A stretch of 64,000 nucleotides of DNA from Blasia pusilla. Lineage: Eukaryota. Shown piece by piece: positions 6,060 through 38,329 of the stretch (the first letter of the stretch is position 1; each line of letters starts with the position of its first letter). The position numbers and the translations under genes are program-made. The DNA lies in contig CM114271.1 in NCBI GenBank assembly GCA_050084515.1, positions 248,001-312,000 on the forward strand. The letters are read 5' to 3'. The notes under the pieces are model-generated. The model ran no database searches. It saw only the letters and a list, made by a program, of their open reading frames with translations, and was not told where the DNA came from.

Positions 6060-6720
6060 GATGGTCAGCACTCACGCTCTATGTGAAAAGTAACTGATAG
6101 AATTACTATAGTAACTTAATGTTTTACCACAGTAAATAGTAGTTCCCTGTTACTATAGATTTACCTCAGTAATTCTGAGAATTACTGTGGGCGGCAGGCC
6201 CTAACCCTAAAACCCTAAAACCTAGAAACTCATTCTCTTGGCTGTATATAACCCTTTGAGGGTGACCTGCGAAATTCTTCTCTCATACACCTTTCTGAAC
6301 ACAACTCTCTGAGCTGAGGAGTTGATTGAGAAGCACTGAGTGTGCTTTGCTTACCTGAGTGGATTGTGCTTCTGACCTTAGTAGTTCAGTGTGCTGAGCA
6401 CTGAGTGTGCTGCTGCTTATAGACTGAGAGGTCTGCTGACCTGAGGGGTTCAGTGAATCTTGTGATACAAGGTGTCTAGTAGTACTAACCTGAGTGGTTG
6501 CTATTGAGATGTCTACTGCTGCTAACCTGAGTGGTTGCTATTGCACTAAGTGTGCTTGACAATGCTAGGTAGTCTGGTGATACAGGTTGTCTAGTGCTTT
6601 CCTCTACAATCTAACCTGAGTGGTTGCTATTGCCCTAAGTGTGCTTGTAATAGCTAGGTTGTAGAGAAACTCTGATATTCTAAAACTCTATGTGAGTCTC
6701 CTATTGATATTACTGTCATT
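6060..6720 (+). mobile_element. Possible LTR-like sequence of an unrelated family
   Basis: Telo-box-like ccctaaaaccctaaa (~6200-6220), TATATAA at ~6246 and three copies of ctaacctgagtggttgctattg (~6485, ~6522, ~6611). No partner or TSD found. Confidence 0.4.
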
Positions 6721-10224: not shown

Positions 10225-12104
10225 TGTCGTACGCATACACATCGCTACACAACATACATCGCTGTCACCGAACACACACACAGACACGCACGATCCCATG
10301 CTAACTCATGGCATCCAAACAACGAGACAAGAAGTACCAAAATATCTCTAATAAAATAATATCCAATCTCTCTCACAACACCATAGTTCTCACATGTCTC
10401 TCTCAATGTCAAACCAAACCCACTCTCCTAATGAGAGGCTTGGGTTACACACACAAGGCAAACAAGACCATAACTCCGCCGCCTCATGCCAATAGGTTCA
10501 ACAAAGAGAATGAGCTCTCAAGCTCTCTCTCCTTGACGTATACCCCTCCCCTCTCCCCAGCTCTCTCCATGGTAACCTATGCTCCCAAGTCACCTCCTTG
10601 GCTCTTGACCCGACTTAAGAGGTCAAGGGCCACTTACCAAAAATAGAAAGTCGATCATATACTCAAAATGGTACTTATCTAAAATAGTGAGTTCCTCAAT
10701 ATGACTCCAAATGAGCCGAAACGAAGGGGAGACCTCCTCTCTCAGGTTTTCCGGGGCCTCAACAGGTCATCCTCGACCTACTAAGCATGTCCTCCACTAC
10801 TCAGGAAGGCGCTCTACTAGATCTCACCGATGTATCCTAAAAGACGTGACAGTTTTCGTACGGATACACATCGCTACACAACATACATCGTTGTCACCGA
10901 ACATACACACAAACACCCACAATCCCATGCTAACTCATGGCATCCAAACAATGAGACAAGAAGTACCAAAATATCTCCAATCGCCCCCTTAGTTGGTGGT
11001 TAGGTCCCTCTAACTCTAGATAGCCATCTATCCCTACCTACCATGACATACATCTCTCGGACGCTGAGAGCAAGAAGGCCGGGTGCTCATGTGGCCCCAT
11101 CGTCAGTCGCCTTCTTGTCAACCATATCACAGACATAAGTCGGAATGTAGAACTAGCTACTCTATGTACATCTGGGACACATCCATCGTCCTGGAGGAAC
11201 CCTAATGAGAGGTGGCGTCAAACATGCCATATGTCATCCTCTCAAACACCCATCACAGACTAGCATAGTGGTTGCACCACGGGTGGGACACAACATACAC
11301 CGCAAGCCTGCAGGAACTATTGCTAAGCTTGGATTAACTATACCATCAATATTCGGAAGATGATATGGCGCACAATTACGCACATGGTCCTTCCAAACCA
11401 TACCATCGCGTCCCTCCAATAAAAGCACACAAGATGGTAAAACCTCACGCACTCTCAAGATGGTGCGCCCTGCAGTCACATCCAATGTCATGGGTGCCGT
11501 CTGCTGTAAGTAGACATAGTCTCCTTGATGAAACCTCCGGATATTAGGTCGATAACCACCTCCCAGAATAGTCGCATACCTCAACGTATCCTGATGTTGC
11601 GCAATCACCAAGTTCTCAAACGTCATAGGCATCACTCTTCGAAAAAACTCAGCCCTCTCAGAACATGCTCACATCCATACATCAAGGTCATCAAGGTTCA
11701 ACACCTCACCAGTATCTCAACAAATGGCTGGAGGTAAATCTGGCTCTCCGCCATAAAGCAACAAGTACGGTGAGAAAGACGCTAAGGATGCCTGCTTGCT
11801 AAATCTGTATCCCATCGCCAACCACGGCAACTGAAGGTCCCAATCTCCTAGGTGACCTCTCTGCAAGCCATACTTGTGTAGTCCTCTCTTCACTATGTGC
11901 ACAATCCGCTCCGCTAGTCCATCCGCCTCAGGATGATCTCGCGAAGTAGTGCGGTGGTCGATTAGTGCTTGATCACACAAGGCCTAAAACTCCCCGCGGA
12001 ACTCTGTACCCTGGTCTGTCAACACCTCAACTGGAGTGTCGTAATGACTCAACACTCGATCTAGGAAGGCATACACTACTCCCTCACTCGCTTTGTCAAG
12101 AAAT
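10225..12104 (-). mobile_element. E1: 3' fragment of the same family (S-L-S, PHD, integrase C-half)
   Basis: S 10225-10352, L 10353-10851, spacer GT, S 10854-10981. ORFs 11234-11635 and 11717-11980 match E3 INT/PHD. Truncated at ~12104. Confidence 0.93.
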
Positions 12105-14330
12105 GAAAAACTGGGCACTAAAGTGAGGACAAAATTCCAAGCATAGGGATCGACTAACCAAGCGGTATAAAACCTCTCCAATAGCCAAAGGGCGGACACC
12201 TGAAGGAGGCTTATCCATACCCAACAAACGACAAGCCCCTAAGACCCTAGAGAAAGAGAATGGGAGAGGACCTGCCGCAATATGTGCACACACCTTATAG
12301 AGAGAGACAAAGCCACTTGCTGAATCTGCCGGGATAAAGCAATCGCGGAGATGCTCAAAAACCATCCTTGATAGCCCGCTTGCTGATAAGCGAGGAGTAT
12401 GAAGAAAAGCCCTTGTGAAAACCTCCAAGTCAAACTCCAAGTCAAGGTCCGTTGTATAGTCTTCCACAAAAGGTGGAGCATTGCCACTTGAAGGAGGATG
12501 AAGAGCTTCTTAGAGAGCCATTGTTTCCGCACTTGGAACCGTTGGAGAGAGAGGACCTTATTCTCGAGCTGCACGTGAAAACTCACCAACTTGCCCCAAG
12601 AGTGGACTTCATCGAAGGTGTTTTTTTTATTGAAGGCCTTCCATGATTGGCATGTTGAGTGGGATGAGCCGCAGCTAAGGCCTTGCTCCCAATCCCAATC
12701 CCCAGACATAAACCGTCGAATACGTGTGGAGGTTTCATGATGACCGTCCCTCCACCCTTTGGAGGGAGGACTAAAACCCATTGTGGGAAGAATAATAGGA
12801 GATACCAAGCATTAATATCTGTGGGATCATGCGCTAACCCTTCTAATAGGAAAAGCAAAGCTTGTTGGATGTTGGGGCAAAGAGCAATATGAATGCGAGT
12901 GTAGTTTCTAGGACGATGAAGACCTGGATGGAAAAAGCGAAGGAAATCAATTTGGCTTAATCACGTCCAAACACTTATTGTGGGGAGTGTAGTAGCAGGT
13001 GGTATTGTGTTAGGGATTGATGACCCATGCATGGATCGATAGTATCGGTGATGTCTTTTGTTCCCATTAGGAGCAAACTCCTTACCACAAGGTATGCAAC
13101 AAACCTTTGGTACAAATGAAGAAGTAGAAGGGTTATATGGAGAGGAGGTGGGGGGTGCAAGAGTTGGTAATGGACGACGATGAGGGGGTAAGTAGGTTGG
13201 GGAAGGAGGAGGAGGAAGAGGGGAGATAAGGGTAGAATAGATGGGAGTTGGAAGCAAGGGCACAGATGAGATATGTGGGGATGGCAAAGTAGTAAGATTC
13301 GATAATAATGGATCAAGGTTAGGCTCAATAGGACAAGACAAAGAGGGGAGAAGTGGATAATCTTAAAGAAATGTAGCAAGTGTAATGGGTGTATTAGTAT
13401 CTGGAGGAAAATGGAAAGATCTACTATAAGGACGTGAACGAGGGGGAGATGTTACGGCTAAAGGAGGGCGTGTAAAACCAGAGAAGCGAGAAGATGGAGA
13501 ATCCAACTCCTTCTCTGATGCCATAGAACAAAGGTAGACAAGTCATCAAAGACAAGGAAAGACATATGAAACGTGGTTTGGAGAAATCATGAGGATAACC
13601 AGCAAAACAAATGTAGTGGAATCGGTCCAAATTTAGATGGAGAGAATAAAATTAGGCAATATCGAATTTATGATTGAAAATTACTATAAAAATATATAAA
13701 GCAATTGAAAAGGAAAAGTGATCTATATGGTATCGAAAGAGGTGGCTCAAGAATATGAATTACTAATGCCCTTAAGGAAATAGCAAAAGTATGTAGGGGC
13801 GAAACACTAAGGTAAAGAGTTGAAAGAGCAAGGAAGAGGTTCGGGAGGAAGTGACCTAAAACAAACCTGTACACAAAAATAGGCGCCTACTGAGAAGGAA
13901 GAAAAATAGAAAACCTTCTTAATATGAAAAGAACGAGCTGGTCGAGATGATCTAAACAAGACCAAACACATCCAAAACCGACACTCCATGAGAAAGCTAT
14001 GAAAGAAATTGGAAACACCAAAAAAGAGGATGTGAGGAGAAAGTGAGCCAGCCACGAATGACTGCTATGACGGAATGAGTGCGTAATGTTGGGCCCAGCC
14101 CGTATCAAAAGATCGAGAAAAGCAAGAGGAATCCCTTAAACCGATGGTAATCGGGTGTCGCTCTATAAGGAGAGCAATATGTGTGAAATTGCGATTCGGA
14201 ATCTATAAGCACATTAAGGAGAGAAGGAGATCCAAAGATCCCAAGAATTTTGGAAAACTCAATCTTAAGTGGAAAAAAGAAGACCCCAAAGTTCAAGCTT
14301 GAGAAGATGAACATGTTGGGTCATAGATAG
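12105..14330 (-). mobile_element. Non-LTR retrotransposon, CRE/RLE-like, 5' part (zinc finger plus RT N-terminus), decayed
   Basis: ORF 12096-12467 (SASGLSRMVFEHL...RLLGMDKPPSGVRPLAIGEVLYRLVSR) resembles RLE-clade RT subdomains 0-2. C2H2-like CIPCGKEFAPNGNKRHH lies in 12961-13341. The upstream boundary is approximate. Confidence 0.75.
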
Positions 14331-17830: not shown

Positions 17831-20800
17831 CACAAAAACCCGAGCTCGCGCCCGGTGTTCCATGTCTGGACATGTCCGTTTCCTTGCAACCTTCGTAGTT
17901 CATGATTGCCTCCGATTAATTTCACTCACTCTTTCTTATTTCTCACCTCTCATCATAATGGGACCAGTGGGTTTCCTCTCATATCCACACGTGTAATCCT
18001 TTCCTTCAACGTGTTGGCTTCTGTCACTTGTGATATCTATGTCCAACCATACTTTCCAAAATCCCATGTATCTAATAAAAGACTCCATATAGCCATTTCT
18101 TATCTAAGTCCTACTTGCCATATGTGGCTCCAAGTCTGCTTAGTCATTCTTAGTAACCTTGCTTTCTTTCATTCTTAGATCCTCACTATTTCTTCACCTC
18201 TATGTTTATCCTCGACTTCCAAGTGCAAGTGCATCATTAGTATCCATTCCTTGCAACATTCTGATTTACGAAAAACCTTTTAGGAAGCACTATCAGCAAA
18301 CCACCTCTCATGTCTCTGAGCTCCTTAATCTCCTAGATTGTCATGGCCGGTTGTTGAATTCTGAAGTCTTAGTAATGAGGATGGGAGCCTTGCATCAAGA
18401 GCCCTAAATCTTTCCATCTATGGAGAAGAGTGATCCTAATCCCCTTGTCTGATCCATAAATCTCGCTTACACATCTAGATTAGTAAAAACTTTGAGACCC
18501 TTTACTCCCTGATCTTGCTTACACATTGAGTGCTTCTAGCATGTCTGAAACAAGCTTCACATCTGCAACTTTGTATCTTGGTCTAAAAAAATGAGGTTGG
18601 TTTTTGACCTAATGTAGTCCAACCAAATCTCTCTTCTAAAAATTTCTCGCGTTTGAAGTAGAAGAGAAAAGTCTTGAAGAGAGGTTAAGGATTTGGTCTT
18701 TTCTTTTGAAGAGAGACTCTACACTCTTCCTCTCCTCTCTTACTCTCTCATGCCAAAAGACCAACCCCCGAAATCTAACAGATTGTCATGCGCATACACA
18801 TTGTTACACAACATACATCGTTGTCGCCAAACATACACACAAACACGCACGATCCCATGCTAACTCATGGTATCCAAACAATGAGACAAGAAGTACCAAA
18901 ATATCTCCAATAAATGAAGTAGATCCAATCTCTCTCAACCATAGCTCTCAAATAAGTGCACTCTCACACATCTCTCTCAACGTCAAACCAAACCCACTCT
19001 CCTAATGAGAGGCTTGGGTAACACTCACAAGACAAGTAAGACCATAGCTCCGCCACCTCATACCAAGAGGTTCAACAAAGAGAGAATGAGCTCTCAAGCT
19101 CTCCCTCTTTGAGGTATACCCCCTTCCCTCTCCCAAGCTCTCTCCTCAGTAACCTATGCTCGTAGGTCACCTCCTTGGCTCTTGACCTACTATAGCGGGT
19201 CAAGAGCCACTTTCCAAAGTGGAAAGTCAACTCTACCAACCATGGAAACTTACCCAAAATATGGCTCCAAATGAGTCGAAACGAAGGGGAAACTTGCTCT
19301 CTCAGGTTTCTCAGTGACCTCAGCAGGTTATTTCAACCTCTAGAGCATGTCCTCCTCTACTCGCGAAGGCGCTCTACCAGATCTCTTTGATCTATCCTAA
19401 AAAGTCTGACAACTGTCGTACGCATACACATCGCTATACAACATACATTGTTGTCGCAAACATACACACAAACACGCATATCCCATGCTAACTTATGGTA
19501 TCCAAACAACGAGACAAGAAGTACCAAAATATCTCCAATGCCCCCCTAGCTGGTGGTTAGGTCCCTCTAACTCCACATAGCCATCTTTTCCTACCTACCA
19601 TGACATAGATCTCTCGGACGCTAAGAGCAAAAAGGTTGGGTGCACATGTAGCCCCATCGTTAGTTGCCTTCTTGTCATCCATGTCATAGACACAAGTCAG
19701 AATCTAGAACAATCTACTCTATGAACATCTCGGATACATCCATCATCCTTGAGGAATCTTAGTGAGAGATGGTGTCAACCATGCCATATGCCATACTCTC
19801 AAACACCCATCACAGACTAGCATAGTGGCTTCACCATGGGCGCAACCACACAACATACATTGCAAGCCTGCAAGAACTACTGCTAAGCTCGGATATTATA
19901 CTATCAATATTAGGAAGGTGATATGGCGCACAGTTATGCCCATGGTCCTTCCAAACCATACCATCGCCTCCCTCCTATAAGAGAACACCAAATGGCAAAC
20001 TCTCACGCACTCTCAAGATGGTGCGTCTTGAAGTCATATCCAACGTTGTGGATGCCGTTTGCTACAAGTAGACATAGTCTCTCTGATAAAACCTTCAAAT
20101 AGTAGGTCGATAACGACCTCCTCAAAAGTCGCATACCTCAATGTATCCCGATGATACGCAATTGCCAAGTTCTCAAACGTCATGGGCATCACTCTTTGAA
20201 ATAACTCAGCCCTCTGAGAACATGCTCACATCCATACATCAGGGTCATCAAGGTTCAACACCTCACCAATATCTCGACAAATAGCCAGAGGTAAATCAGG
20301 CTCTCAACCATAAAGTAGCAAGTACTGTGCAAAAAACGCGAAGGATGCCTACCTGCTGAATCTGAATCCTATCGCCGACCACAAAAACTGAAGGTCCCAA
20401 TCTTTTCTCCTAAACCCTCTCAACAAGCCATACTTGCGTAATCCTCTCTTCACCGTTTGCACAACCCTCTTTGCTAGTCCATCCGCCTCACGATGATCTC
20501 TCGAAGTGGTTCGGTGGTCGATCAACGCGTGATCACACAGGGCCAGAAACTCTCACGAAACTCTGTACCCTGGTTTGTCAACACCTCACTTTGTGCACTG
20601 TTATCACTTAACACTTGATCTAGGAAGGCATACGCTACTCCCTCACTCCCTTTGTCAAGAAATACAACCAACTCTATCCACTTCGAGAATTTCTCGACCA
20701 TCACCAACACATGACGACTATCACGCTCCATCAAAGGCAAAGATCGTGAAAAATCCAAACTCCATCTATAACCTAAACGCATGATCGGAAGTGGATGCAA

Positions 20801-20984
20801 CTATGGAGTCAGAACATTGAACGATGCTTGGACTCGATCACACACCATGCAAATGGCAACAAACTATTGAACATCAGTCTGCATGCCTCACCACCAGTAT
20901 TGTATCTGGAGCAAGTTGTACGTCTGCTTCACTCCAAAATGACCCAACTCCTCATGGGCATGACGCACCAAACGTGCTCTCTGA

Positions 20985-21112
20985 TATCGTGCGCATACAC
21001 ATCACTACACAACATACATCGCTGTCACCGAACACACACACAAACACGCATGATCCCATGCTAACTCATGGCATCCAAACAACGAGACAAGAAGTACCAA
21101 AATATCTCCAAT
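20985..21112. repeat. E3 short repeat S, terminal copy (128 bp)
   Basis: Near-identical to 21626-21753 (tgtcgtgcgcatacac...aaatatctccaat). Confidence 0.95.
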
Positions 21113-21623
21113 AAAGTAAGATCAATCTCTCTCTCCACCATCTCACAACATAGCTCTCAAAGGTGTGCACTCTCTCTCATGTCAAACCAAACCCACTCTC
21201 CTAATGAGAGGCTTGATAACACTCACAAAGCGAGGTACCATAGCTCCGCCGCCTCATGCCAAGAGGTTCAACAAAGAGAGAATGAGCTCTAAAGCTCTCT
21301 CTCCTTGAGATATATCCCTCCCCTCTCCCAAGCTCTCTCCATGGTAACCTATTCTCCCAAGTCACCTCCTTGGCTCTTGACCTGATGTAGGAGGTCAAGG
21401 GCCACTTACCAAAAATAGTAAGTCGATCATATACTCAAAATGGTACTTACCTAAAATAGTAAGTTCCTCAATATGGCTCCAAATGAGCCGAAACGAAGGG
21501 GAAACCTGCTATCTCAAGTTTCCAAGGGCCTCAGGAGGTCACCCTCGACCTACTGGGCGTGTCCTCCACTACTCATGAAGGCGCTCTATTAGATCTCACC
21601 GATCTATCCTAAAAGACGTGACA
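21113..21623. repeat. E3 long repeat L, 3' copy (~511 bp)
   Basis: Near-identical to 30807-31317 (aaagtaagatc...aaagacgtgaca), with only scattered differences by eye. Confidence 0.95.
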
Positions 21624-21625
21624 GT

Positions 21626-21753
21626 TGTCGTGCGCATACACATCGCTACACAACAAACATCGCTGTCACCGAACACACACACAAACACGCATGATCCCAT
21701 GCTAACTCATGGCATCCAAACAACGAGACAAGAAGTACCAAAATATCTCCAAT
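21626..21753. repeat. E3 short repeat S, internal copy next to the PPT-like tract
   Basis: Separated from L by a 2-bp spacer (gtgaca-gt-tgtcgt). Followed on + by cgcccccct, which is sense AGGGGGGCG and PPT-like. Confidence 0.93.
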
Positions 21754-21933
21754 CGCCCCCCTAGCTGGTGGTTAGGTCCCTCTAACTCCAGATAGCCATC
21801 TATCCCTACCTACCATGACATACATCTCTCGGACGCTAAGAGCAAGAAGGCCGGGTGCTCATGTGGCCCCATCGTTAGTCGCCTCCTTGTCATCCATATC
21901 ACAGACACAAGTCGGAATGTAGAACTACCTTCT

Positions 21934-22380
21934 CTATGTACATCTTGGACACATCCATCGTCCCTGAGGAACCCTAGTGAGAGGTGGCGTCAAACATGCC
22001 ATATGCCATCCTCTCGAACACCCATCACAGACTAGCATCGTGGCCGCACCACGGGCAGATTCACACAACATACAACGCAAGCCTGCAGGAACTACTGCTA
22101 AGCTCGGATCTACTGTACCATCAATGTTAGGAAGGTGACATGGCGCACAATTACGCACATGGTCCTTCCATACCATACCATCGCGTCCTTCCAGCAAGAG
22201 AACACCCGATGGCAAAATGTCACGCACTCTCAGGATAGTGTGCCCTGTAGTCACATCCAACGTCGTCGGTGCCGTCTGCTGCAAGTAGACATAATCTCCC
22301 TGATGAAACCTCCGGATAGTTGGTGGATAACCACCACCCCGAATAGTCTCATACCTCAACGTATCCCGATCGTTGTGCAA
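21934..22380 (-). pseudogene. E3 integrase C-terminal region with PHD finger
   Basis: CMLC...LVCDGCSRGWHMACLTPPL...WMCPRC is a C4HC3 PHD consensus. It is also seen, decayed, in E1 (~11170-11300) and E2 (~19725-19865). Confidence 0.92.
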
Positions 22381-22399
22381 TCGCCAAGTTCTCGAACGC

Positions 22400-23930
22400 C
22401 ATGGGCATCACTCTCGAAATAACTCAGCCCTCACGAGAACATGCTCGCACCCATACATCCGGGTCATCAAGGTTCAAAGACCTCACCAAAGATCTCGACG
22501 AATGGCCGCAGGTAAATCGGCTCGCCATAAAGTAGCAAGTACGGTGAAAAAGACGCTAAGGATGCATGCCTGCTGAATCTGTATCCCATCGCCAACCATG
22601 GCAACTGGAGGTCCCAATCTCTTAGGTGACCTCTCTGCAAGCCATACTTTCGTAAACCCCTCTTCACCGTCTGCACAACTCTCTCCGCTAATCCATCCGC
22701 CTCAGGATGATCTCGCGAAGTCGTGTAGTGGTCGATCAGGGCCTGATCACACAAGGCCTGGAACTCACCGCGAAACTCAGTACCCTGGTCTGTCAACACC
22801 TCAGCTGGTGCGCCATAATGACTCAGCACTCTGTCAAGGAAGGCATAAGCTACTCCCTCACTCGCTTTGTCAGGCAATGCAACCAACTCGATCCACTTCG
22901 AGAAGTGCTCGACCATCACCAACACATAACGACTGTGACGCTCCGTCAAGGGAAAAGGTCCTGCAAAATCCAAACTCCATCTATACCCTAAGCCCATGAT
23001 GGGTAAGGGATGCAATTGTGGAGTCGGAGCATTGAACGATGCTCGGACCCGATCACACACCATGCACCTGGCAACAAATTGCTGAACGTCAGTCTGCATG
23101 CCTCGCCACCAATACTGAATCTGGAGCAAGCTATACGTCCGCTTCACCCCAAAGTGACCCAACTCCTCGTGGGCATGCTGCACTAGTCGTGCTCTCTGCG
23201 CAGGATGCGGCACTACGCGTACTCTGCCATCCTCCCAAACCCTCAAAACATGTGTCCCCTCCCAACGGAACCATCTGGCCTGCTGTAGGATCCGATCCCG
23301 CTCTCTAGCATCCATGGTGCTTGCAACGCTGCCAGTACGAAGGTACTCCAAGACTACTCCATCATCATGAATATCTCGGCCACTTGTCGTGTCCTCAATG
23401 GCCTCGGGATCCAAGGACTCTCCACTAGACCTCGCCATCGAAGTCTCCACACTCTGGCTCTCCATAGCCAACATGCCTAAATAGGCTGACGCGTGCCATC
23501 CTGGCACCGACTCCTCATCACTCTCTCCATGCCATCGAGCTCTAGTCGCATCTTGCTGACTCGGGCATGGGTTACGACTCAACCCATCTGCATCCTGGTT
23601 GAGCGTCCCAGGTCTATGTACCACCTGAAAATCATACTCCTGCAACAACAGAGCCCATCTCGCAAGCTTCCCTCTAAGCTTGTCGGACTCGATCAACCAC
23701 TTCAGTGGTTGATGATCAGTGATGATGGTAAAGGGGTTGCCGAATAAGTAACACCTGAAATCGCGCGACCACACACATGACCAAGCACTCACCCTCATAC
23801 GAGCTGAACTTTGCCTCTGCCACGTTGTTCGAGCGGCTAGCGTAAGCCACCACGAACTCTCTACCCTCATCATCATGCTGGGTGAGCACCGCTCCAAGCC
23901 CCAACATGCTCCAATCTGTGTGCAATAGGA
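22400..23930 (-). pseudogene. E3 RNase H plus DDE integrase
   Basis: RNase H: LHTDWS...VVAYASR...TDHQPL...ADGLSR. Integrase: HHCC finger (HEELGHFG...CMVC) and core WSLDFAGP, VLTDQGTEF, HPEADGLAER. One frameshift. Confidence 0.95.
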
Positions 23931-25005
23931 AAGGACGCCCCCTGATCGGTCTCCTCAAGATGAGTGCGGACGTCAACCTCTCCTTGAGCAACTGAAATGC
24001 TCGCTCCTGCTCATCCCCCCAATGCCACTCGTGATCCATTTTGGTCAGCAAGGTCAGCGGCTTCGCAATCGAACTGAATCCCTTGACGTATCGCCGATAG
24101 AAGTTCGCCAATCCCATGAATGCACGAACACGGCTCACATCTCTAGGGCGTGGAATGCGTGTGATAGCCTCTACCTTTGTCTGCTGAACACCAAGGCCCC
24201 CTGGATATATCGTATGACCCAAGTACTCAATCTGGTTGTAGAAGAACTTACACTTGCCTAGATGTAGCTTCAGCCCATGTAATTGCAATCGTCGAAACAC
24301 CTCCTCTAGGTGTTGCTCATGCTCCTCAACCGTGGCGCTGAAGACTACGATGTCATCAATATAACACCTAGCAAAATCCAGAACAGCCAAGATCCTATCC
24401 ATGACCCTCTGAAACTCAACCGGGGCGTTCTTTAACCCAAATGGTAAGAACCGCCATTCGTACAAACAATCCTTCCCGTGAGGATCGATGCCCCAAAATG
24501 ACGTCTTCTACCTGTCCTCCAATCTGATAGGGAGCTGATGGTATGCGGCTCGTAAATCCAATGAACTCAAGACCTTTACGTGACCAATCGCATCAAAGAT
24601 CTCCTCAGGGGTGGGCATGGCATACCTATCGGACTTCGTCTGCCGATTGATAGGTCGGTAATCCCCACACATCCGCCTATCCGTCTAGTTGCAATGCACA
24701 TCCTTCTTGGCGGGCATGACACTGGCAGATGCATACTCCCCATGCGACATCTCCACTAGTCCTGCTCCGACCAAGTCCTGGCTCCTACTTTGAATCAGAG
24801 CCCTCTCCATATCACTGTGCCTGTAGGGTCGTCGAAAGATCGGCATATCACTCGACAACTCAATGCGGATCCCCGGTCCCTTCAGTGTACCCAAATCCTC
24901 CATGCTAAACGCAAAGCAGCTCCTATAACTCCCGAGGAACTGATGTATTCGGCGCCGCTCTCCTCCTGTCAACTTAGGGCCCATCTCTGGCTCCCAAGTC
25001 TCCAT
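23900..25005 (-). pseudogene. E3 reverse transcriptase (Ty3/gypsy type)
   Basis: PIFRRPYRHS, YEWRFLPFGLKNAP, RCYIDDIVVFS, KCKFFYNQIEYLGH; broken by stops. Confidence 0.95.
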
Positions 25006-25344
25006 CGTGACTACGGTAGGACTCTTCGGCGCGGGTATCGGTGGTTGCTATGGTGCAACCCCGTCTCGAACAACAACACTCGGCCGCTCTCCTGCAGCCA
25101 ACTGCAAACTCTAATCTCCTCCACGTGCAGTTCGAAACCACGCTCGATGTTGTGGCTATCATCTCCTGCAAAATATCCCAAGAAGTCCAAGGGTGTCTCT
25201 CCCGATCTCCCCTGGTGCGTAGATCTCCTCGGGTGTAGCCCCCAACCACTGCCTCCACCATCTCGGTAGGCATGGGGCTCACCAACGCAACCGTTGTGAT
25301 CTGTCACGATCTCATACGATGTTGCTCAGCCACTCCCAAGCTGA

Positions 25345-26285
25345 GGATCCATATCAAGCACTTCAGGTCCATCGCCTGACCCAAGACATGGCGTCATGAT
25401 GCCTCTGACACTGATGGTATTGCCATCACTCCTGTGGGAAATCCTATCGCTCGCTCTCTCTCGTCGACGTTGGGCTCCACCAACCGCTGAACCAGGTCAT
25501 CCCAAACCAAGCCAGGACCGGCCTCCTTGTATGCATAGGAAGCGGGAAAACTCACAAACGTGGGCAAGGCTGCCCGCGGCCTGCCTACCCTGTTGACCAC
25601 AGTTAGCGGTCGATCATCGTGCCTCACTTCCTGTGATCGACGACCTGGATCCAGAATGGAATCCACTAACAAAGGGGAGGGGCGCTCCACTCTCGTATAC
25701 GCCCTCCATAACATCGCATGGGGCACCAAGTTGGTCCACCATAGACGCGGGCGATGGTCTCTAGAACCTACACTCGCCGCATCCAAGAACACTGCCGGGC
25801 CGATCCAGGCACGCACCTGATGAGCACTAGTCACCACCCGTGACCTGGAGTCTCCTAAGATCGGCACATTCTCCAGAATGTAGGCTGGAGAACGAGGCGG
25901 TGCTCTTGCAATCGCCGTAAGACCCTCAACATCTCCCAAAACAACCTGGACCGAGTGTCACCAACCCCATTTGCCTCGTCCAAAGACTCGATTGGCCCTA
26001 ACATGGCCAACCGACAATGACCAAATCAATGGTCCCTACCGCTCTAAGTCTTGCGCCCCAACAACAAAATATCCTCGGTAGGGAACTCTGGTACTTCAGA
26101 TCGCTGGACGCTTGCACAATAAGTCGGGAAAACGAGGCGTAATTGCGCCACATATCGAGTGCGACGCGCCCGCAACATCATCACTCTCCAAATACATGTC
26201 GGGCCAGACTCGCACTCGCCTGCAAAAGCAAAGACTAACCCGTGCTAATCCCTCCAAAGAGATCTAACACTCGAATACCCTCCTC
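25345..26285 (-). pseudogene. E3 C5 cytosine DNA methyltransferase domain (DNMT3-like), disrupted
   Basis: Manual translation gives: motif I GIRVLDLFGGISTG (~26281-26240), II YLESDDVA (~26195), III EDILLL (~26075), IV IDLVIVGWPC*GQS (~26030-25990; PCQ with CAG>TAG), VI YILENVP (~25883-25863), VIII LDAASVGSRDHRPRLWWTNL, IX ERERAIGFPTG and X *RHVLGQAMDL (~25395-25362). The motifs are in canonical order. Confidence 0.92.
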
Positions 26286-26699
26286 CGGGACACACCACAC
26301 AATGGGTGTGGTATCCAAGGTGTCATCGTAGCACTCCTCGCTACCTCGGGTTCGTCGCGGACCCGCCACGCTCTGGTGCAAACGCCGCTCCACGCGGGTC
26401 CGATGACGACGTGCTCATCGCTAATCGTTGAAGCTCCTTAGTCGAGCCCCACTGCGGCACCTCTCCTCCACGGAATGATGCAACTACCATAACACTCCTC
26501 TCCATAGAAATTTCAGGAACGGGAGTATCCTCTGCATGGACATGTCCCTCAATGAAATCACTAGGCCAAGTGATGTCACTGCTAAATGCTGCTAAGGTCG
26601 CCATCTCTCCTGGCCATTGCTCGATCACTGCATCTCTGGATCGAACGGGTAATGAGCTAAGGCGCCCATCACCTGACTGCCATCCTGGTCTGGAGGACG

Positions 26700-27156
26700 C
26701 TGACTCCTCCCAGTAATCCAGGGAAAACCCCATCGGGTATAACACTGCTCCACCAACCAAGACGTCACAGGACTCTGCATCAGTCACTATCGCCTTGGCG
26801 TGCACCACGGACTCATCTGTAGGATATCCCGGGCGAATCCTCACCACGACCTCCTATCAGGTGATATACTGTGTGGTACTCGCTCCACCCAAGGATGTCT
26901 GTAACCGAAATGGACAACGCTCCACATCGGCTCTCGTCAAGCCTAATCCTCTGAATGACGCTTTCCCCAACATCAAGGGTTGCGCTCCTGAATCCAACAA
27001 GACGCGTTGCGGACTAAAAGCTCTACCTCCAGGACTCACCAACTGGAAGACCTCTCCTCGGTTATCTAGCAACACAACACCAAGAGAAGCCATGGCACGC
27101 TCTATCGCGGGTGTAGCGGGCATCTCCGCCATCCTAGCGACCATGCACTTTGCCAT
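26700..27156 (-). pseudogene. E3 aspartic protease
   Basis: RVLLDSGAQPLMLG (DSG catalytic motif) and downstream CDVLVGGAVL. Confidence 0.85.
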
Positions 27157-27421
27157 GAATCGGCGTGGACGGCCCGAGCATCCGCTCCAAGGGCAGGTCC
27201 ATCACCTCCTCTGCAATCACCTCTGAACATGATGCAGGAACTCCAACTCCGCGCTCACATAGTGAAGCGGCCAGCCGAAAAGCCTCGGCGGGCGTACCCC
27301 CCAACGTCACAACATCGGAAGCAGAAAATAAAGGAGTGCGGTACACAACGGTGGCCGCCCCCAACAACGTGCTTGACACATGCCCCTCATGAGCATCAAC
27401 AATAGGAGTCTTCGCACTCGC

Positions 27422-29000
27422 TTATCCCATCGCCCTCCGTGCCTGCACACTAACAACATTACCAACTCTCCAAGAACTTTGTTGAGGACCCATCGTCCTC
27501 ATTGCTTCCGACAACGTGAAAGACTGAGGAAGCCTAGTCTGTCTTTTGGCTTCCCCTCGCTGTGGATCCAACTCTGCGGCTGCTCCACGCGTCACAACTG
27601 CGGCGGCCTCCATCTGTGAAACCCTGCACATCCATCCAGGATCCTCCTGATCTTTGGCTGCTCCATATGATGTCGATGCCACGGATCCGACATCGGGTAA
27701 CCTCAATGCCATAGCGGCAATCTGCTCCTGTAGCTGCTGTATCTGAGCAGCCATCCCAGCCTCACGTCCGCCATCTCCCTCGGCGCATCTAGGTGGTGGT
27801 ACTCTACCTCCTCCACGGGCAACTCCAGCTCCTCGTCCCCCAACGGGACCACATGGTGCACGATCCCTAGGTGCACCCGGACCGGCTACTCGCTCTGGTG
27901 CCCTCTCTAGCCCTCGGTCCGAAAGTAACTCAGGATGTAAACTGAAACACCTGGCGCGTGTATGACCATACCTCTGACAATAGTCACACTGATAACCTCC
28001 TGGTGCAGCACCATCTCCTCCTCCATGCTGAGGCACACGTCCATGACCCTGACGAGTGCAATCGCGCTGATGATGGGCTCCACCACATGACCAACAAGTA
28101 ATAGTAGGCGGCTGCTGCAAAGCCGCATATGAAGGCGCAGGTCTCTGTGGCACGGCCTCCCGATATCCTCCCTGAGCTCGTGGTGCCACAGTCGACCTAT
28201 CTCAGAGTCCACGTTGCTGCATAGGTGGTGTAGACAATCGTGACTGCTCTCGCCCAAAACCCATGGTGGCTACGCTCTCCTCCGCCATGTTGCGCTCAAT
28301 GTTCTCGGCGTTCCTAAAAACATCTCTCAACGTAGGGGAGGTGTTCATAAGAAGCACCCCCTCCCGCACCCGTGTCCGCAGGGTCCGGTCTAGCATCGCG
28401 TACCATGACTGGATAGCCTGAGCCTCTGTCACCCCCTGAGTGACGCTGATCAACCGGCGCAAGTGAGTGTAAGCCTCACGCAAACTCTCACCCGGGCGCC
28501 TCTGGAAGTCGTGGATGCTCCGCAACTTCTCCATCCGTACCCCCTGGTAGCTCGCCCTCAACTCAACAAAGAACTCAACCACAGGGTTGAACCAAGGACG
28601 AACCCGACTAGACGGTGCAACTGCTCCCGTGTGAGTGACTCCTCCTAAAATATCACTAGTGGAAGAGTCAATAGCCTCTCCTAACTCCTCCTCCTCATCT
28701 GGGAACGGCTCTGTCCATGACACATAATGTGGGTCATAGTAGAGCCTCCACACCTCAATCTCACATGCATATCTCTGAGAGAACTCATGGTAATCGTCCA
28801 TGGGCCCCCTCTAAATCTTTGGAACATACCGTTCCATCTTTGTAAATGGGTTAAACTCTCTAGAGTTCTGGCCCATTGGGAGTCTCACCAACTTCTAAAC
28901 TCGCTATAAAATCGCAACTCAATCGTGCCCCTCTCGCACTGAAAACCTATGTCGGTCCTCTACCCCGTCGTCCATCTCAAATGACGCCCAACTGGTAGGA
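27422..29000 (-). pseudogene. E3 gag (capsid-like region plus two CCHC zinc knuckles), disrupted
   Basis: ORF pieces 28202-28801 (FQRRPGESLREAYTHLRRL, gag-like) and 27422-28189 (CWSCGGAHHQRDC, CDYCQRYGHTRARC). The true start is not defined. Confidence 0.85.
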
Positions 29001-30092
29001 CCACTCACAATGTGTGGCAATGTGCTCACAAACTCCTCTACACCCTCCCCCTCGTCTGACGATGACACAGAAGGAGGTCGAGGTGGTCCCTCACGTGGAG
29101 ACCCTCGGAACCTCGCGCCACTCCGCGTAAAACCTCTAGAGCTACTCTCGGGTTCACCACCTCGCCTCTCAAAGTCCCGAACGGACCCCGTGATGATCCT
29201 CCTGCCCCTCTCACCTGATCACTCTGAACCTCGTGAGGAATCCCTCAATCACTCATCCCAAACATGCGGCACTCGATCTACACTCTCTCTCCCCGAGACG
29301 TGTAACGTGCGGCAACACGCAGCGTGGTGCGGCAAATCGACCAGGCTATCATCTCATCAAAAACCTACCCTCAACTCCGGACATCCCACACAGGTCTATG
29401 TCCCCTAGACCACATACATAAATAATGCTCTCAGCATCCACACACCCAATATCCCCAAATAAATCCCAGAATCCCTCACACGTGCACGGTAAAGGACCAG
29501 AATGGGTAACCTGAACACATGTCGATGTCGCTCCTCAGCAACTGCAAATCTCGACCCCAACTCGATCGTGGAGACAACTCCTCCAATCAGCAAGTCATAC
29601 TCCTCCCGTACTGATGCTGCTCAAAACTCCTCAATAGAAAGTTCGGTCCCAGCGGAACGGTGCGGCGTTGCAGGCGGCACGGAACGGCTACGAACGAGCA
29701 CGGCCCTCGATGGTGGGATGCGGCACTCGGCGGCATACCATCCTCAATCAATAATAATCCCACACTCTGCTCCACAATGATGGTGCGGCTCGCGATCGAG
29801 CGGTGCGGTGCGACCCACGAGCGCACGGGCGTGGCAATCGGCGGCTAGCGTTGCGACTCACGGGGTCACGCCACGATACTCGATCGTCGTCGGCGGCTAC
29901 CAATCACAACATAGCAGCATGAAATCAAAACTCAAACACCATAACCGAGGTCATCCGCCATCGGTTGATGAAGAAACTGCGATGACGGTGGCGGCCAAAA
30001 CAAAGTACGTGGTGGCGACGCAAGTCAAGGAATCAACGAACGTCGTGGAAGACCCTCCACTCCGTAATGGCGGCGATGGCACCCAAAGGGTG

Positions 30093-30240
30093 GACAATGG
30101 ATGGTGGACCGTTGATAGTGACGGTTGACCGCTGATGGTGATGGCCGACTAATGACGGTGATGGTTGACCGTTGATTGTGATGGTTGACCATTGACGGTG
30201 ACGATTGACCGTCGACCGTTGACGGTGACTATGATGGTGG
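30093..30240. repeat. Degenerate minisatellite in the E3 5' leader
   Basis: Repeated tgacggtgatggttgaccgt-like units; absent from the E2 leader. Confidence 0.8.
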
Positions 30241-30790
30241 CGGCTGATTTAGGGTTTGCACAATTTAACCCTAAAAATCGCCTAGCAATGGCAGCTTTAC
30301 AAGATTGACCATAACTTTTTACTCGCAACTCTAAATTCTGCATTGTTTGTTGCACATCGTGCACAGCTTCACAATCTACGCCAGCATCAAAAAATATTTA
30401 GAATCAAACATTTCAGTAAAACCTGACGGGGACTGTCGTAAAGCCCAATGTCTCTTTCTCCTACACCAAATTCGGCAGCGCTCCCGCGCTGATTTCTCCC
30501 AACGAAAATGTAACATCTATAAAAATACAAATCAGAAAGCTACATGGTGCTCCCGAGAGCACCAGCATGGGGCAACCCACCCCCATACTCAATCCCTATG
30601 AGAAATTGGGCAGCGCTTCCGCGCGCCACTCTTCCACACGAAAAATCGGCAAATGCAACGAATAATGAAAGCAGCCCTTGCTCCGGTGAGCACTCCCATG
30701 AGCCGCTGAACGGGGAACACGGTCCCCAACCTGCAAAAACAACGAGTGACCAGCGAGCTCCCCCATGAAGCCCTCTCACTCTCTCATTCT

Positions 30791-30806
30791 CTCATTCTCT
30801 CTTTGT
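30791..30806 (-). promoter_or_regulatory. Putative self-priming primer-binding site of E3
   Basis: Sense ACAAAGAGAGAATGAG directly abuts the 5' L repeat and is the reverse complement of a 16-mer inside L (perfect at 21271-21286; one AG shorter at 30967-30980). No tRNA-type TGG PBS is present. Confidence 0.65.
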
Positions 30807-31317
30807 AAAGTAAGATCCAATCTCTCTCTCCACCATCTCACAACATAGCTCTCAAAGGTGTGCACTCTCTCTCATGTCAAACCAAACCCACTCTCCTAAT
30901 GAGAGGCTTGGGTTACACTCACAAAGCGAGGTACCATAGCTCCGCCGCCTCATGCCAAGAGGTTCAACAAAGAGAATGAGCACTCAAGCTCTCTTTCCTT
31001 GAGGTATACCCCTCCCCTCTCCCAAGCTCTCTCCATGGTAACCTATTCTCCCAAGTCACCTCCTTGGCTCTTGACCTGATGTAGGAGGTCAAGGGCCACT
31101 TACCAAAAATAGTAAGTCGATCATATACTCAAAATGGTACTTACCTAAAATAGTAAGTTCCTCAATATGGCTCCAAATGAGCCGAAACGAAGGGGAAACC
31201 TGCTATCTCAAGTTTCCAAGGGCCTCAGGAGGTCACCCTCGACCTACTGGGCGTGTCCTCCACTACTCATGAAGGCGCTCTATTAGATCTCACTGATCTA
31301 TCCTAAAAGACGTGACA
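30807..31317. repeat. E3 long repeat L, 5' terminal copy
   Basis: Direct repeat of 21113-21623. No S copy at this end. Confidence 0.95.
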
Positions 31318-34300
31318 CTGAGAAAGATGAGGCACTACATGCATTCTACCATCCCTCCAAACTCGCAACACATGTATCCCCTCCCACTGGAACGATGTGG
31401 CTCGATGTAGGACTGATCCCGCTCTCTAGCACCCACTATGTTGGCAACGCTACCAATACACAAGTACTCCAAGACTACTCCATCATCGTGAATGTCTCGG
31501 CCACCGGTCGTCTACTCATCCGCCTCTGGATCTTAGGACTCTCCATCAGACCTTGCAACCGACCTCTGAACAACTTGGCTCTCTATATCCGACAAGCCCG
31601 AATAGGCTAATGCGTGTCATCATGGCACCAACTCCTCATCACCATGCCAACTCTTGCCATGCCAACGAGCTCCAGTCACATCTTGCACACTCGAGCATGG
31701 GTTACGGCTCAAACCATCTGCATCGTGGTTGAGCGTCCCAAGTATATGCACCACTTGGAAGTCATACTCTTGCAACCAAAGAGCCCATCCTGCAAGGTTT
31801 CTTGTAAGCTTGTCCGACTCCATCAACCACTTAAGTGGCTGATGATCAGTAATGATGGTAAAGGGGTAGCGGAAAAAATCACATCTAAAATGTGCGACAG
31901 CCCACACAACATCCAAGCACTCATCCTCATACGAGCTATACTTCGCCTCAGCATCGTTATTCGAGCGACTAGCGTAAGCCACCACGAACTCTCTACCATC
32001 ATCGTCATGTTGGGTGAGCACGGCTCCAAGCCCCAACATGCTCCAATCTCTATGCAATTGGAAAGGACACCCCGTGATCAATCTCCTCAATATGGGTGCG
32101 GACGTCAATCTATCCTTGAGCAGCTAAAATGCTCTCTCCTGCTCATCCCCCCAATGCCACTCCTGATCCACCTTGGTCAGCAAGGTTAGCGGCTTCACAA
32201 TCGAACTGAAACCCTTAACGTACCGTTGATTGAAGTTCGCAAATCACATGAATGCATGAACTCGACTCACATTTGTAGGGTGTGGAATGCGTGAAGTAGC
32301 CTCTACCTTCATCTGTTGCACACCAAGGCCCCTTGGGTATATCCTATGATCCAAGTACTCAATCTGGTCGTAGAAGAACTTGCACTTGCGAGGATGTAGC
32401 TTTAGCCCATGTAATTGCAATCCTCGAAATACCTCCTCTAGATGTCACTCATGCTCCTCAACAGTGGCACTTAAGACTACGATGTCATCAATATACACCT
32501 ACCAAAACACCACGTGTACTCTTGCCTGCAAAACAGCCGCTAACCCAGTGCTAATCTCTCCAAAGAGATCCAACACCAAAATACCCTCCTCTGGGATGCG
32601 CCATACAATGGGTGTGGTATCTAAGGGCGTCATCATAGCACTCTCGGCTACCTCGGGTTCCTCCACGCGGTCTCCACATGCTCAGTGGCTAAGGGTCAAA
32701 GCTCCTCAATCGAGCCCCAAAGCGGCACCTCTCCTCCACGGACTGATGCGGCGACCATCATACTACTCTCCATAGAAATGTCAAGAACGGGAGTATCATT
32801 TGCATGGATATGTCCCTCGATCAAATCACTAGGCCAAGTGATGGCGCTGCTAAATGCTACTAAGGTGGCCATCTCTCTTAGTCGGCGCTCGATCATCGCA
32901 CCTGTCAATCGAATGGGTAATGAGCTAAGGCGCCCATCACCTGATTGCCATCCTGGTCAATATGACGCTGACTCATGCCTGTATTCCAAGGAAAACCCCA
33001 TAAGGTACAACACTCCTCCACCAACCAAGCCGTCGTAGGACTCTGCATCATGACTCATCTGTAGGGTGTTGGGGGTGAATCCTCACCACAACCTCCTGTC
33101 GGATGATAAAGTGTGTGGTACTCACTCCATCCAAGGATGTCTGTATCCAGAATGGACAACGCTCCACATCGGCTCTTGTCAAGCCAATTCCTGTGAATGT
33201 TGCTTTCCCCAACATCAACGGTTGTGCTCCTGAATCCAACAAGATGCATTATAGACTAAAAGCTCTACCTCCTTGACTCACCGATTGGAAGACCTCTCCC
33301 CAGTTATCCAAAAAAATAACACTAGGAGAAGTCATGGCACGCTCTATCGTGGGTCTAGCGGGCATTTCCGCCATCCTAGCAACCGTAACCTGCCATGAAT
33401 CTAACGTGGCCAGCCTGAGCATAAGCTCCAAGGGTAGGTCCATCACCTATGAACGTGATGTAGGAACTCCAACTCCACGCTCACACAGGGTAGCGGCCAA
33501 CCAGAAACCCTCAGCGGGCGTACCTCTCAACGTAATAACATCAAAATCAGAAAATAAAGGAGCACGGTACACAACATCCTTTATTGTGGCCGCCCCCAAC
33601 AACGTGCTCAACACATGCTCTGCTGAGCATTAGCAATAAAAGTCATTGCACTCGCTTCTCCCATTGCCCTCCGTGCCTACACACCAACAACATCACCAAC
33701 TCTCTGGGAACTTGATCATGACCCATCGACGGGGTCCTCATCGCCACGGACAACGTCTAGCCTGGTCTATTTCCTCACTTCCCCTCGTTGTGGATCCAAC
33801 TCTGCGGCTGCTCCACACGTAAAAACTGGGGTAGCCTCCATCTCGGCAACCCTGCACATCCAACATGGATCCTTGATATCTCTGGCAACTCCATAAGATG
33901 TCGATGCCACCGATCCAACATCGGATAACCTCAATGCCATAGCGGCAATATGTTGTTGTAGCTACTATATCTGAATAGCCATCCCAGCTTCACGCCTGGC
34001 GTCTCCCTCAACACGTCTATGTAGTGGGACTCTACCTCCCAACAGGACCACCTGATGGACGATCTATAGGCCCACCCCGAACAGCTTCTCGCTTTGGTGC
34101 CCTATTTGGCCCTCAATCCAGAAGAAACTCAGGGTGCAAGCTGAAACATCGGGCACGCGTATGACCATACCTCTGATAATAGTCACATTCATAACCTCAT
34201 GGTGAAGCACCATCTCCTCCTCCATATAGAGGCACGCATCCATGACCCTATTGAGTGCAATCGTGCTGATGATGAGCTCCACCACATGACCAACAAGTAA

Positions 34301-37300: not shown

Positions 37301-37333
37301 CCCCATGCTACGAGGTTCAGCAAAGAGAGAATG

Positions 37334-37525
<192 letters not shown>

Positions 37526-38329
37526 GGTATACCCCCTTCCCTCTCCCAAGCTCTCTCCTCGATAACCTATGCTCGGAGGTCATCTCCTTGGCTCATGACC
37601 GGCTGGAGCGGGTCAAGGGCCACTTCCCAAAGGAAATTCAAGTCTACCAAATATTGAAACTTACCCAAAATAGTAAGTTTCTCGATATGGCTCCAAATGA
37701 GCCGAAACGAAGGGGAAACCCGCTCTCTCAGGTTTCCTAGGACTTCAGCAGGTCATCCTTGACCTCCTAAGCCTATCCTCCTCTAATCGCAAGGGCGCTC
37801 TACCAGATCTCTTTGATCTATCCTAAAAAGTCGTGATAGGATAGACTGGATCCCAGAAAGAGGGGTGAAAAAAAAGGAAGATGTCACTTGAAACACTAAG
37901 AGCAACCTGGACAGATTAGGGGCACTTTATTTGGGACTCCCAACCTCATTCCCAACACTTCATCTCGAAATGGCTCCATTGAGGTACCCATGAAAAAATT
38001 GAGAGGAAACCCACAGTTTCAATTCTGATCAGAGGTGACAGAAAACTAATAGCTAACAGATGACAACTTTAACCAAATATTGTATAACAACCATTCATAA
38101 ATATACATCTAAGACGAGTAGTCGAGAGGTTCTGATCAAAGATTACCAAAAAAAAAAAAGAATTGCAAAATGACGAAATCCGACAAGTTGCAAAACAGTG
38201 TGTAAGGCAAAAGGTATGAGAAACTTATCATTGGGGGCCATATGAATTAATGTTAGGAAACACAAATCCATTCAGACCTGCAACCCATCGAAATGAGACA
38301 GATTGCAAAAGAGTTATGGAAGAGAGGAA

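Follow-up and report, generated by a model that had tools for sequence, protein, structure and literature searches.

The window analysed here is a stretch of 64,000 nucleotides (nt) from Blasia pusilla (contig CM114271.1 of GenBank assembly GCA_050084515.1, positions 248,001 to 312,000 of the forward strand), and all coordinates given below refer to it. Comparison of the window with itself revealed a repeat nest that comprises three copies of one element family, all on the minus strand. The focus is on one of these, denoted as copy B, and on its 3' end at positions 20,985 to 21,753, where short (S) and long (L) repeats abut. Read in sense orientation, copy B comprises the target-site duplication (TSD) TCAG, a long repeat (L1), a primer-binding site (PBS), an internal region of ~9 kb, a polypurine tract (PPT), a short repeat (S1), the spacer AC, a second long repeat (L2), a second short repeat (S2), and TCAG again. 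Its features are located as follows:

20985-31317, minus strand: copy B, a 10.3-kb Ty3/gypsy retrotransposon.
20981..20984, no strand assigned: 3' target-site duplication of copy B, CTGA on the plus strand and TCAG in sense.
20985..21112, minus strand: S2, the terminal short repeat and end of the element (sense ...GCGCACGATA), with its terminal CA mutated to TA.
21113..21623, minus strand: L2, the 3' long repeat of 511 nt, which starts with TGTCAC, ends in ...CTTACTTT and is joined directly to S2.
21272..21286, minus strand: PBS partner in L2, CTCATTCTCTCTTTG, complementary to the PBS and the predicted RNA 5' end and self-primer.
21309-21316, minus strand: TATA-like box GATATATC, ~29 nt upstream of the PBS partner in L2.
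21618..21631, no strand assigned: internal att site, sense ...ACGACA-AC-TGTCAC..., where S1, ending in CA, and L2, starting with TG, meet head to head.
21624-21625, no strand assigned: att spacer of 2 bp between S1 and L2.
21626..21753, minus strand: S1, the internal short repeat of 128 nt, which ends in ACGACA and forms the start of the long terminal repeat (LTR) that reverse transcription would define.
21754..21766, minus strand: PPT AGCTAGGGGGGCG, adjoining the start of S1.
30791..30806, minus strand: PBS ACAAAGAGAGAATGAG, directly after the last base of L1.
30807..31317, minus strand: L1, the 5' long repeat, whose TGTCAC start is the start of the element, with no S upstream.
31318..31321, no strand assigned: 5' target-site duplication of copy B, 4 bp.

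An earlier note on this DNA had described GTGACA-gt-TGTCGT at 21618-21631 (plus strand) as two element termini set head to head inside a larger repeat unit, and this string was recovered together with every other coordinate and string that it gave. S1, the spacer, and L2 of copy B add up to 641 nt, and the join at 21112/21113 reads ...CTTACTTT|ATTGGAG... in sense. L1 and L2 are identical at 501 of 514 aligned columns and S1 and S2 at 125 of 128 positions. Copy B is a clean insertion in an older copy of the same family (copy AC), such that the host sequence runs on and only TCAG is duplicated.

The open reading frames (ORFs) of copy B are broken. Matches to Pfam on the minus strand occur in the order RVT_1, RT_RNaseH, Integrase_H2C2, rve, and then a PHD finger in the last ORF fragment, and they are distributed among the following fragments:

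21937..22407, minus strand: ORF fragment with a PHD finger (PF00628, E = 7.7e-12), a C-terminal extension of the integrase.
22470..23954, minus strand: ORF fragment with the end of RNase H, the Integrase_H2C2 zinc domain, and the rve DDE core (Pfam).
23719..24507, minus strand: ORF fragment with reverse transcriptase (RT) and RNase H (RVT_1, 6.2e-23; RT_RNaseH_2, 7.1e-23).

The HHCC motif, the D,D,E triad with its 35-residue spacing (DD35E), and the cysteines of the PHD finger were invariant in 18 of 18 aligned relatives. The best protein matches were from liverworts (Riccia, Calypogeia, and Marchantia), with additional matches in Klebsormidium and Closterium, and many of these proteins carry a PHD domain. 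Upstream of RT, only weak signals for gag (E = 0.038) and protease (E = 0.17) were detected. The copy B family has the domain order, DDE core with HHCC motif, TG..CA ends, 4-bp TSDs, and PBS and PPT of Ty3/gypsy elements but not their two identical terminal LTRs, since its 5' end comprises L only and its 3' end comprises S-NN-L-S. The repeats follow the A1-internal-B1-A2-B2 arrangement known from the order DIRS; however, elements of that order encode a tyrosine recombinase and are not known to produce a TSD, whereas the copy B family has a DDE integrase and 4-bp TSDs. No Phage_integrase-type match was detected in 12 + 37 ORF fragments of copy B at E values up to 1, nor did these fragments reveal any further enzyme. 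The C-terminal chromodomain that typifies integrases of Tf1/sushi elements is likewise missing, with the PHD finger (PF00628) in its place.

By means of an alignment of 18 integrase-PHD proteins, 80 metagenome loci were retrieved, and S and L pieces were mapped onto these loci. S-NN-L-S followed directly after the integrase-PHD gene at 25 distinct loci (L013 being the same locus as L022), a recurrence that is far beyond chance. S alone followed the gene at 22 loci, the 3' end was ambiguous at three (L062, L064, and L067), and the remaining loci had no usable 3' end or no match to the S and L references used. Complete copies of the form L-internal-S-L-S were identified at seven loci (L002, L022, L023, L033, L037, L049, and L059), in addition to B and AC in the window. 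Complete copies of the form L-internal-S were identified at six loci (L001, L019, L031, L045, L052, and L069), with only the 3' end available at 16 more.

The positions of the PPT and PBS indicate where reverse transcription would begin. A PPT adjoins S1 in all three window copies, and a run of G adjoins S1 in related loci too. The sequence after L1 is complementary to a site inside L that lies ~175 nt before the end of L; in copy B, PBS ACAAAGAGAGAATGAG is matched to CTCATTCTCTCTTTGT in L. These sequences differ by clade: B and AC use CAAAGAGAGAATGAG, L002 uses CTCAAAGAACTATGTT with its complement, and L022, L023, L033, and L059 use TCTAGAAAAACT with its complement. The PBS thus co-varies with its partner in L across three clades. 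Complementarity extends over 10-16 nt in seven of nine complete copies, over 8 nt in L037, and is absent from L049. In each clade a TATA-like box precedes the partner by 26-31 nt; it reads TATAAA in the L022-type clade and is weak in L002. Pairing of PBS and partner closes the predicted RNA fold of copy B from L1 to the PBS. A PBS of the tRNA type was rejected because no TGG follows L1, as judged by eye; no tRNA search was run. From these sequence relationships we infer that the minus strand is primed by the 5' end of the RNA itself.

Since the PPT adjoins S and the PBS adjoins L, the end of L corresponds to the end of U5 (unique 5' region) and the start of S to the start of U3 (unique 3' region), and the LTR defined by reverse transcription is therefore S-NN-L. 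The earlier note had drawn the same conclusion and had added that this unit does not end in TG/CA. S preceded L at none of 16 5' ends (14 loci and two window copies), and none of 50 3' ends (47 loci and three window copies) stopped at S-L. Therefore, the ends defined by reverse transcription are never the ends of an insertion, and no ordinary S-L...S-L copy was seen among the loci and window copies.

The spacer between CA and TG was 2 bp in all 28 copies that were read (three in the window and 25 loci); variable spacer lengths, which the earlier note had named, for young copies, as an outcome that would speak against its circle model, were not found. The equivalent sites reported at 19407-19419 in copy AC and at 10846-10859 in copy A1, the third copy of the window, are likewise present. 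The letters of the spacer drift (AC, GT, GC, AT, and AA) and some CA/TG pairs are mutated to TA. This combination of fixed length and drifting letters would be expected of a functional site whose spacer is neutral.

Perfect 4-bp TSDs flank ten of 15 complete copies, with three of four positions matching in two more (AC and L022). They comprise five of the nine L-internal-S-L-S copies (B, TCAG; L002, AAGG; L033, ATGT; L037, ATAA; and L059, TTTA) and five of the six complete L-internal-S copies (L001, TACA; L019, TACA; L045, GTAT; L052, CACA; and L069, ATGG), whereas the TSD is absent or unclear in L023, L049, and L031. The 4-bp duplications show that the insertions were made by an integrase of the retroviral type. 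The L|S join had been proposed to be an exact union of the PBS-defined and PPT-defined ends, and this is the case in seven of nine complete copies, while L023 has a join of the same length with substitutions and that of L037 is 2 nt short. Lastly, the paired repeats of copy B differ by 1.8% in u3, 3.4% in r-u5, and 2.3% in S. Of the seven complete metagenome copies, most likewise have three values of comparable size, with the exception of L023 and L059. This indicates that all repeat pieces stem from the same replication cycle and that S2 was not inherited via read-through RNA.

Three raw RNA runs from one study, which carry the species label of the best-matching DNA set, and one set of DNA contigs were mapped to the element. 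In all three RNA runs the element family was transcribed almost only in sense orientation, at a depth of 57-170 over 21061-24670. Depth was ~3-26 in bins covering 28642-30807, just 3' of L1, and 5-8 in the bin 20700-21060, which covers most of S2 and the flank. Most RNA reads were 90-95% identical to the reference, and they are therefore attributed to relatives rather than to copy B itself. In each run, 40-82 reads matched the internal region up to the PPT and then left the reference at 21753 into a different S (sense GTTGTGGTACAC..., L002-like), such that the S module of expressed relatives differs although their coding region is shared. In the RT-RNase H region, all three runs also contained reads that skipped 1071 nt (23808-24880; 7-13 reads) and 31 nt (24093-24125; 7-14 reads), and these gaps probably reflect deletions in some of the expressed copies and not splicing. 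Joints in the DNA from 21105-21118 to 30802-30816 and from 21751 to 30807 were considered as evidence for circles and rejected, as they are cross-placements between L1 and L2 and between S1 and S2.

Collectively, the flagged stretch is the 3' terminal S-2bp-L-S block of a Ty3/gypsy element, and the insertion represents a circularly permuted form of the cDNA. We favor, with moderate confidence, the interpretation that this permutation was generated by joining of the cDNA ends and cleavage at the att site. Plus-strand synthesis would start at the G-rich PPT adjoining S and minus-strand synthesis from the 5' end of the RNA paired with the PBS adjoining L, as in Tf1, and the product of reverse transcription would be a linear S-L-internal-S-L cDNA. 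By the simplest route, the ends of this cDNA would then be joined (L|S) to yield a circle with two LTRs or an equivalent end-joined form. The integrase would pass over the ends made by reverse transcription and would instead use two sites inside the LTR, namely the TG with which L begins and the CA with which S ends. Nicks after CA on both strands of one internal att site would leave two CA-3'OH ends with 2-nt 5' overhangs, which are the usual processed substrate of retroviral-type integrases. Insertion of these ends would give L-internal-S-NN-L-S with a 4-bp target duplication and the L|S join intact. All repeat pieces are kept but rotated, and therefore the ends of the linear cDNA must be joined and the DNA must be opened at an internal S-NN-L. 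In the earlier note, the layout had been attributed to a two-LTR circle opened at an internal att site. The permuted cDNA, the TG/CA ends, and the 4-bp TSDs support this proposal in part; the circle itself was not observed. Permutation through the internal att site is thus well supported and a circular intermediate is plausible, although unproven.

Several observations weigh against this interpretation. No circle, linear cDNA, or RNA end was observed in the three RNA runs and the DNA contig set, and the three runs gave no clear RNA start or poly(A) site, with X23 at 21154 (6 molecules) and 20934 (8) as the sole candidates. Complementarity is the sole evidence for self-priming. L037 lacks 1-2 nt at its L|S join, and so do the partial copies L011, L016, and L020 when compared with the usual L end of the clade. 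The partial copies L014 and L027 have 15-17 extra nt there, perhaps as variant L ends. Moreover, most copies are old, with 8-23% divergence between their L repeats, and the ORFs of copy B are, as noted, broken. A circle with two equivalent att sites would be expected to yield L-S-L-internal-S as well, and this form was encountered at none of 16 5' ends, contrary to prediction. The other predicted product, L-internal-S, does exist at 22 loci, with perfect TSDs in five of the six complete copies, although these copies might instead have arisen secondarily, by recombination between S1 and S2. The absence of L-S-L-internal-S could be due to a directional step, for example if the right-hand LTR were still not double-stranded, or to rapid recombination between the L repeats, the longer of the two kinds, which would collapse L-S-L. 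In the latter case, the L-internal-S copies (roughly 40-47%) would include the missing class.

An alternative that we regard as unlikely, though worth retaining, dispenses with a circle: the integrase would assemble on one internal att site of the linear S-L-internal-S-L cDNA, cut it, and insert both new ends in concert, and host repair of the broken chromosome would join the two free cDNA ends, namely the end of L and the start of S. This would give the same product, TSD, and L|S join as a circle. Small losses at the join (2 nt in L037 and 1-2 nt in L011, L016, and L020) fit end joining, and L-internal-S would follow directly if both att sites of one linear molecule were used. However, this route is as symmetric as the circle and leaves the missing L-S-L-internal-S unexplained, and it demands that the integrase act 128-510 bp from a DNA end.

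Somewhat less probable still is that RT itself makes linear L-internal-S-L-S, in that the RNA reads through into S2, the S1-NN-L2 junction serves as a template for the ends, and the integrase trims and inserts the product. Restoration of ends from an internal junction template has been proposed for DIRS, PAT-like, and Ngaro elements. The arrangement of the copy B family is identical to the split direct repeats A1..B1A2B2 of such elements (PMC7192593), a directional process would explain the absence of L-S-L-internal-S, and RNA depth over S2 and the flank is above zero (5-8 in the bin 20700-21060). Nevertheless, separate inheritance would be expected to drive apart S2 and the r-u5 part of L1, whereas S1 and S2 are as alike as L1 and L2, and u3 is as alike as r-u5, in copy B and most other copies. 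Furthermore, the PPT adjoins S rather than L and the PBS adjoins L, and L-internal-S copies with TSDs would require a second process.

That the layout is secondary, arising from assembly error or from rearrangement of ordinary LTR elements after insertion (unequal crossing-over or nested insertion), is very improbable and was rejected: tandem and recombinant LTR forms are common in plants and the window is a repeat nest, but base-identical junctions recur in three window copies and at 25 distinct loci, which represent several assemblies and clades, the permuted ends are flanked by TSDs, and ordinary S-L...S-L copies were not encountered.

The other two copies of the family in the window comprise the following:

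18784-20984, minus strand: 3' part of host copy AC, with S2, L2, att 19407-19419 (sense spacer GT), S1, and the end of the internal region; interrupted by copy B.
31318-37838, minus strand: 5' part of host copy AC, with the internal region, PBS 37138-37153, and L1 to 37838.
10225-12105, minus strand: copy A1, 3' end only, with S2, L2, att 10846-10859, S1, PPT, and ~1.1 kb of internal region.

Copy AC is flanked by ATCC/ATCT, which match at three of four positions. It has no counterpart of ~1.8 kb of copy B (24377-26214 versus 32507-32521), including the N-terminal part of RT, and AC therefore has an internal deletion. A perfect short-period AG-rich repeat at 37336-37522 (self-match at a 6-bp offset) is expanded in the 5' L of AC, just upstream of its primer-partner sequence. 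Further along the window, 40679-40941 matches 24589-24852 of copy B weakly (74%), in the region just upstream of the RT ORF, and this suggests another, more distant gypsy-type element.

Additional observations were made among the relatives. L-internal-S copies are without any terminal repeat and should be unable to replicate because they have no 3' copy of L, with its R (repeat region) and poly(A) signal. A solo L-S unit is present in L070 at 6060-6515 on the minus strand. It has TG..CA ends, its L|S join is exact, and its flanks, AAGT/AAAT, match at three of four positions; either it arose by L1 x L2 recombination or an L-S fragment was inserted directly. Distant GC-rich relatives (L021, L024, L029, L032, L038-L043, L057, L063, L068, L075, and L080) showed no interpretable terminal repeats in self-comparison. 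CGACA-GC-TGTC(A/G) sites, which have the same form as the att site of bryophyte-type copies, are located 1.5-2.2 kb downstream of the integrase gene in three of them (L029:7082, L032:10187, and L075:3617). Given that scanning for CA-NN-TG palindromes is not specific (a background of ~1 per kb), these sites are only a hint that the att site may be older than the clades analysed. In L024 (1-123 and 9049-9171) and L063 (1932-2135 and 9398-9601), contig ends repeat internal sequence with 99.5-100% identity, which points to collapsed repeats or circular assembly of the elements in these GC-rich and probably algal relatives.

The textbook substrate for integrases of LTR retrotransposons and retroviruses is linear cDNA with LTRs at its ends, and two-LTR circles are regarded as dead ends. 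In every one of the more than 40 copies examined here, insertion ends differ from the ends of reverse transcription, and the competent form, L-internal-S-L-S, retains the join of the latter. If the L|S join precedes integration, end-joined cDNA would be a productive intermediate for a DDE integrase. We tentatively extend this to the hypothesis that an old streptophyte Ty3/gypsy lineage integrates obligatorily via end-joined cDNA resembling a two-LTR circle, which would be opened by its DDE integrase at a palindromic att site with a 2-bp spacer inside the LTR, with directional choice of att; we hold this with less confidence than the permutation itself. From a practical standpoint, software that expects two identical terminal repeats will mis-annotate such elements and miss L-internal-S copies altogether. 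The family is transcribed in the available RNA runs, which makes the model testable in a liverwort.

Comparison with known systems reveals partial likenesses to several of them. The earlier note had pointed to circle-junction integration in insertion sequences (IS) of the IS3 family. In elements of the IS3, IS30, and IS256 types, the two ends are brought together with a short spacer of constant length between them, and a DDE enzyme works on this junction. The copy B family would have in common with them the abutted ends, the fixed spacer, and the DDE enzyme; unlike it, those elements are DNA transposons without reverse transcription and their spacer derives from donor flanks. If the obligatory end-joined route were true, it would be the retroelement counterpart of IS circle-junction transposition.

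In retroviral two-LTR circles, the palindrome is formed by the LTR-LTR join, where 4 bp separate CA from TG, and integration by this route is minor or of a rescue type. In the copy B family, by comparison, the att site is inside the LTR defined by reverse transcription, the spacer is 2 bp, the provirus retains an intact LTR-LTR join, and this form was shared by all copies seen. A feature that would be shared is cleavage at an internal CA..TG palindrome: the integrases of foamy virus and, in vitro, of HIV-1 are reported to cleave the palindromic junction of two-LTR circles and thereby regenerate ends competent for integration (PMC1180852, PMC1905944, PMC4372172).

Tf1/sushi elements have been described as self-priming, and the same has been predicted for the plant lineages Tcn1 and TAR (PMC6317226). 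As in Tf1/sushi elements, including the Tcn1 clade of non-seed plants, the PBS next to the 5' repeat of the copy B family has its complement within the repeat, where the RNA is predicted to start. Unlike those elements, which have ordinary LTRs and a chromodomain, the copy B family has a permuted LTR and an integrase that ends in a PHD finger. Neither PHD nor Marchantia is named in the same study (PMC6317226).

The split direct repeats of Ngaro, PAT-like, and VIPER elements, which the earlier note did not mention, are a nearer analogue than IS3. Elements with split repeats and a tyrosine recombinase are not known to make a target duplication. Split direct repeats of the form A1-internal-B1-A2-B2 have been described in PAT-like, Ngaro, and VIPER elements (PMC7192593), a circular or end-restored intermediate has been proposed for elements of this kind (PMC7192593, PMC9940879), and TOC1 of Chlamydomonas has been classed among DIRS elements as non-autonomous (PMC9940879). 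The literature searched contained no account of a gypsy element whose LTRs are split or permuted, although an earlier account in Repbase or in reports on REM1 or TOC1 (Day et al., 1988) is possible. Like the PAT-like, Ngaro, and VIPER elements, the copy B family has the arrangement L-internal-S-L-S, equivalent to A1-internal-B1-A2-B2, with an internal copy of the joined element ends. Unlike them, it combines this arrangement with a DD35E integrase, TG..CA ends, and 4-bp TSDs, and no recombinase was found in copy B. The finding connects gypsy elements with split-repeat tyrosine-recombinase elements, which have been regarded as mechanistically distinct, and if the obligatory end-joined route were true, split direct repeats would be the mark of how cDNA is processed rather than of a tyrosine recombinase.

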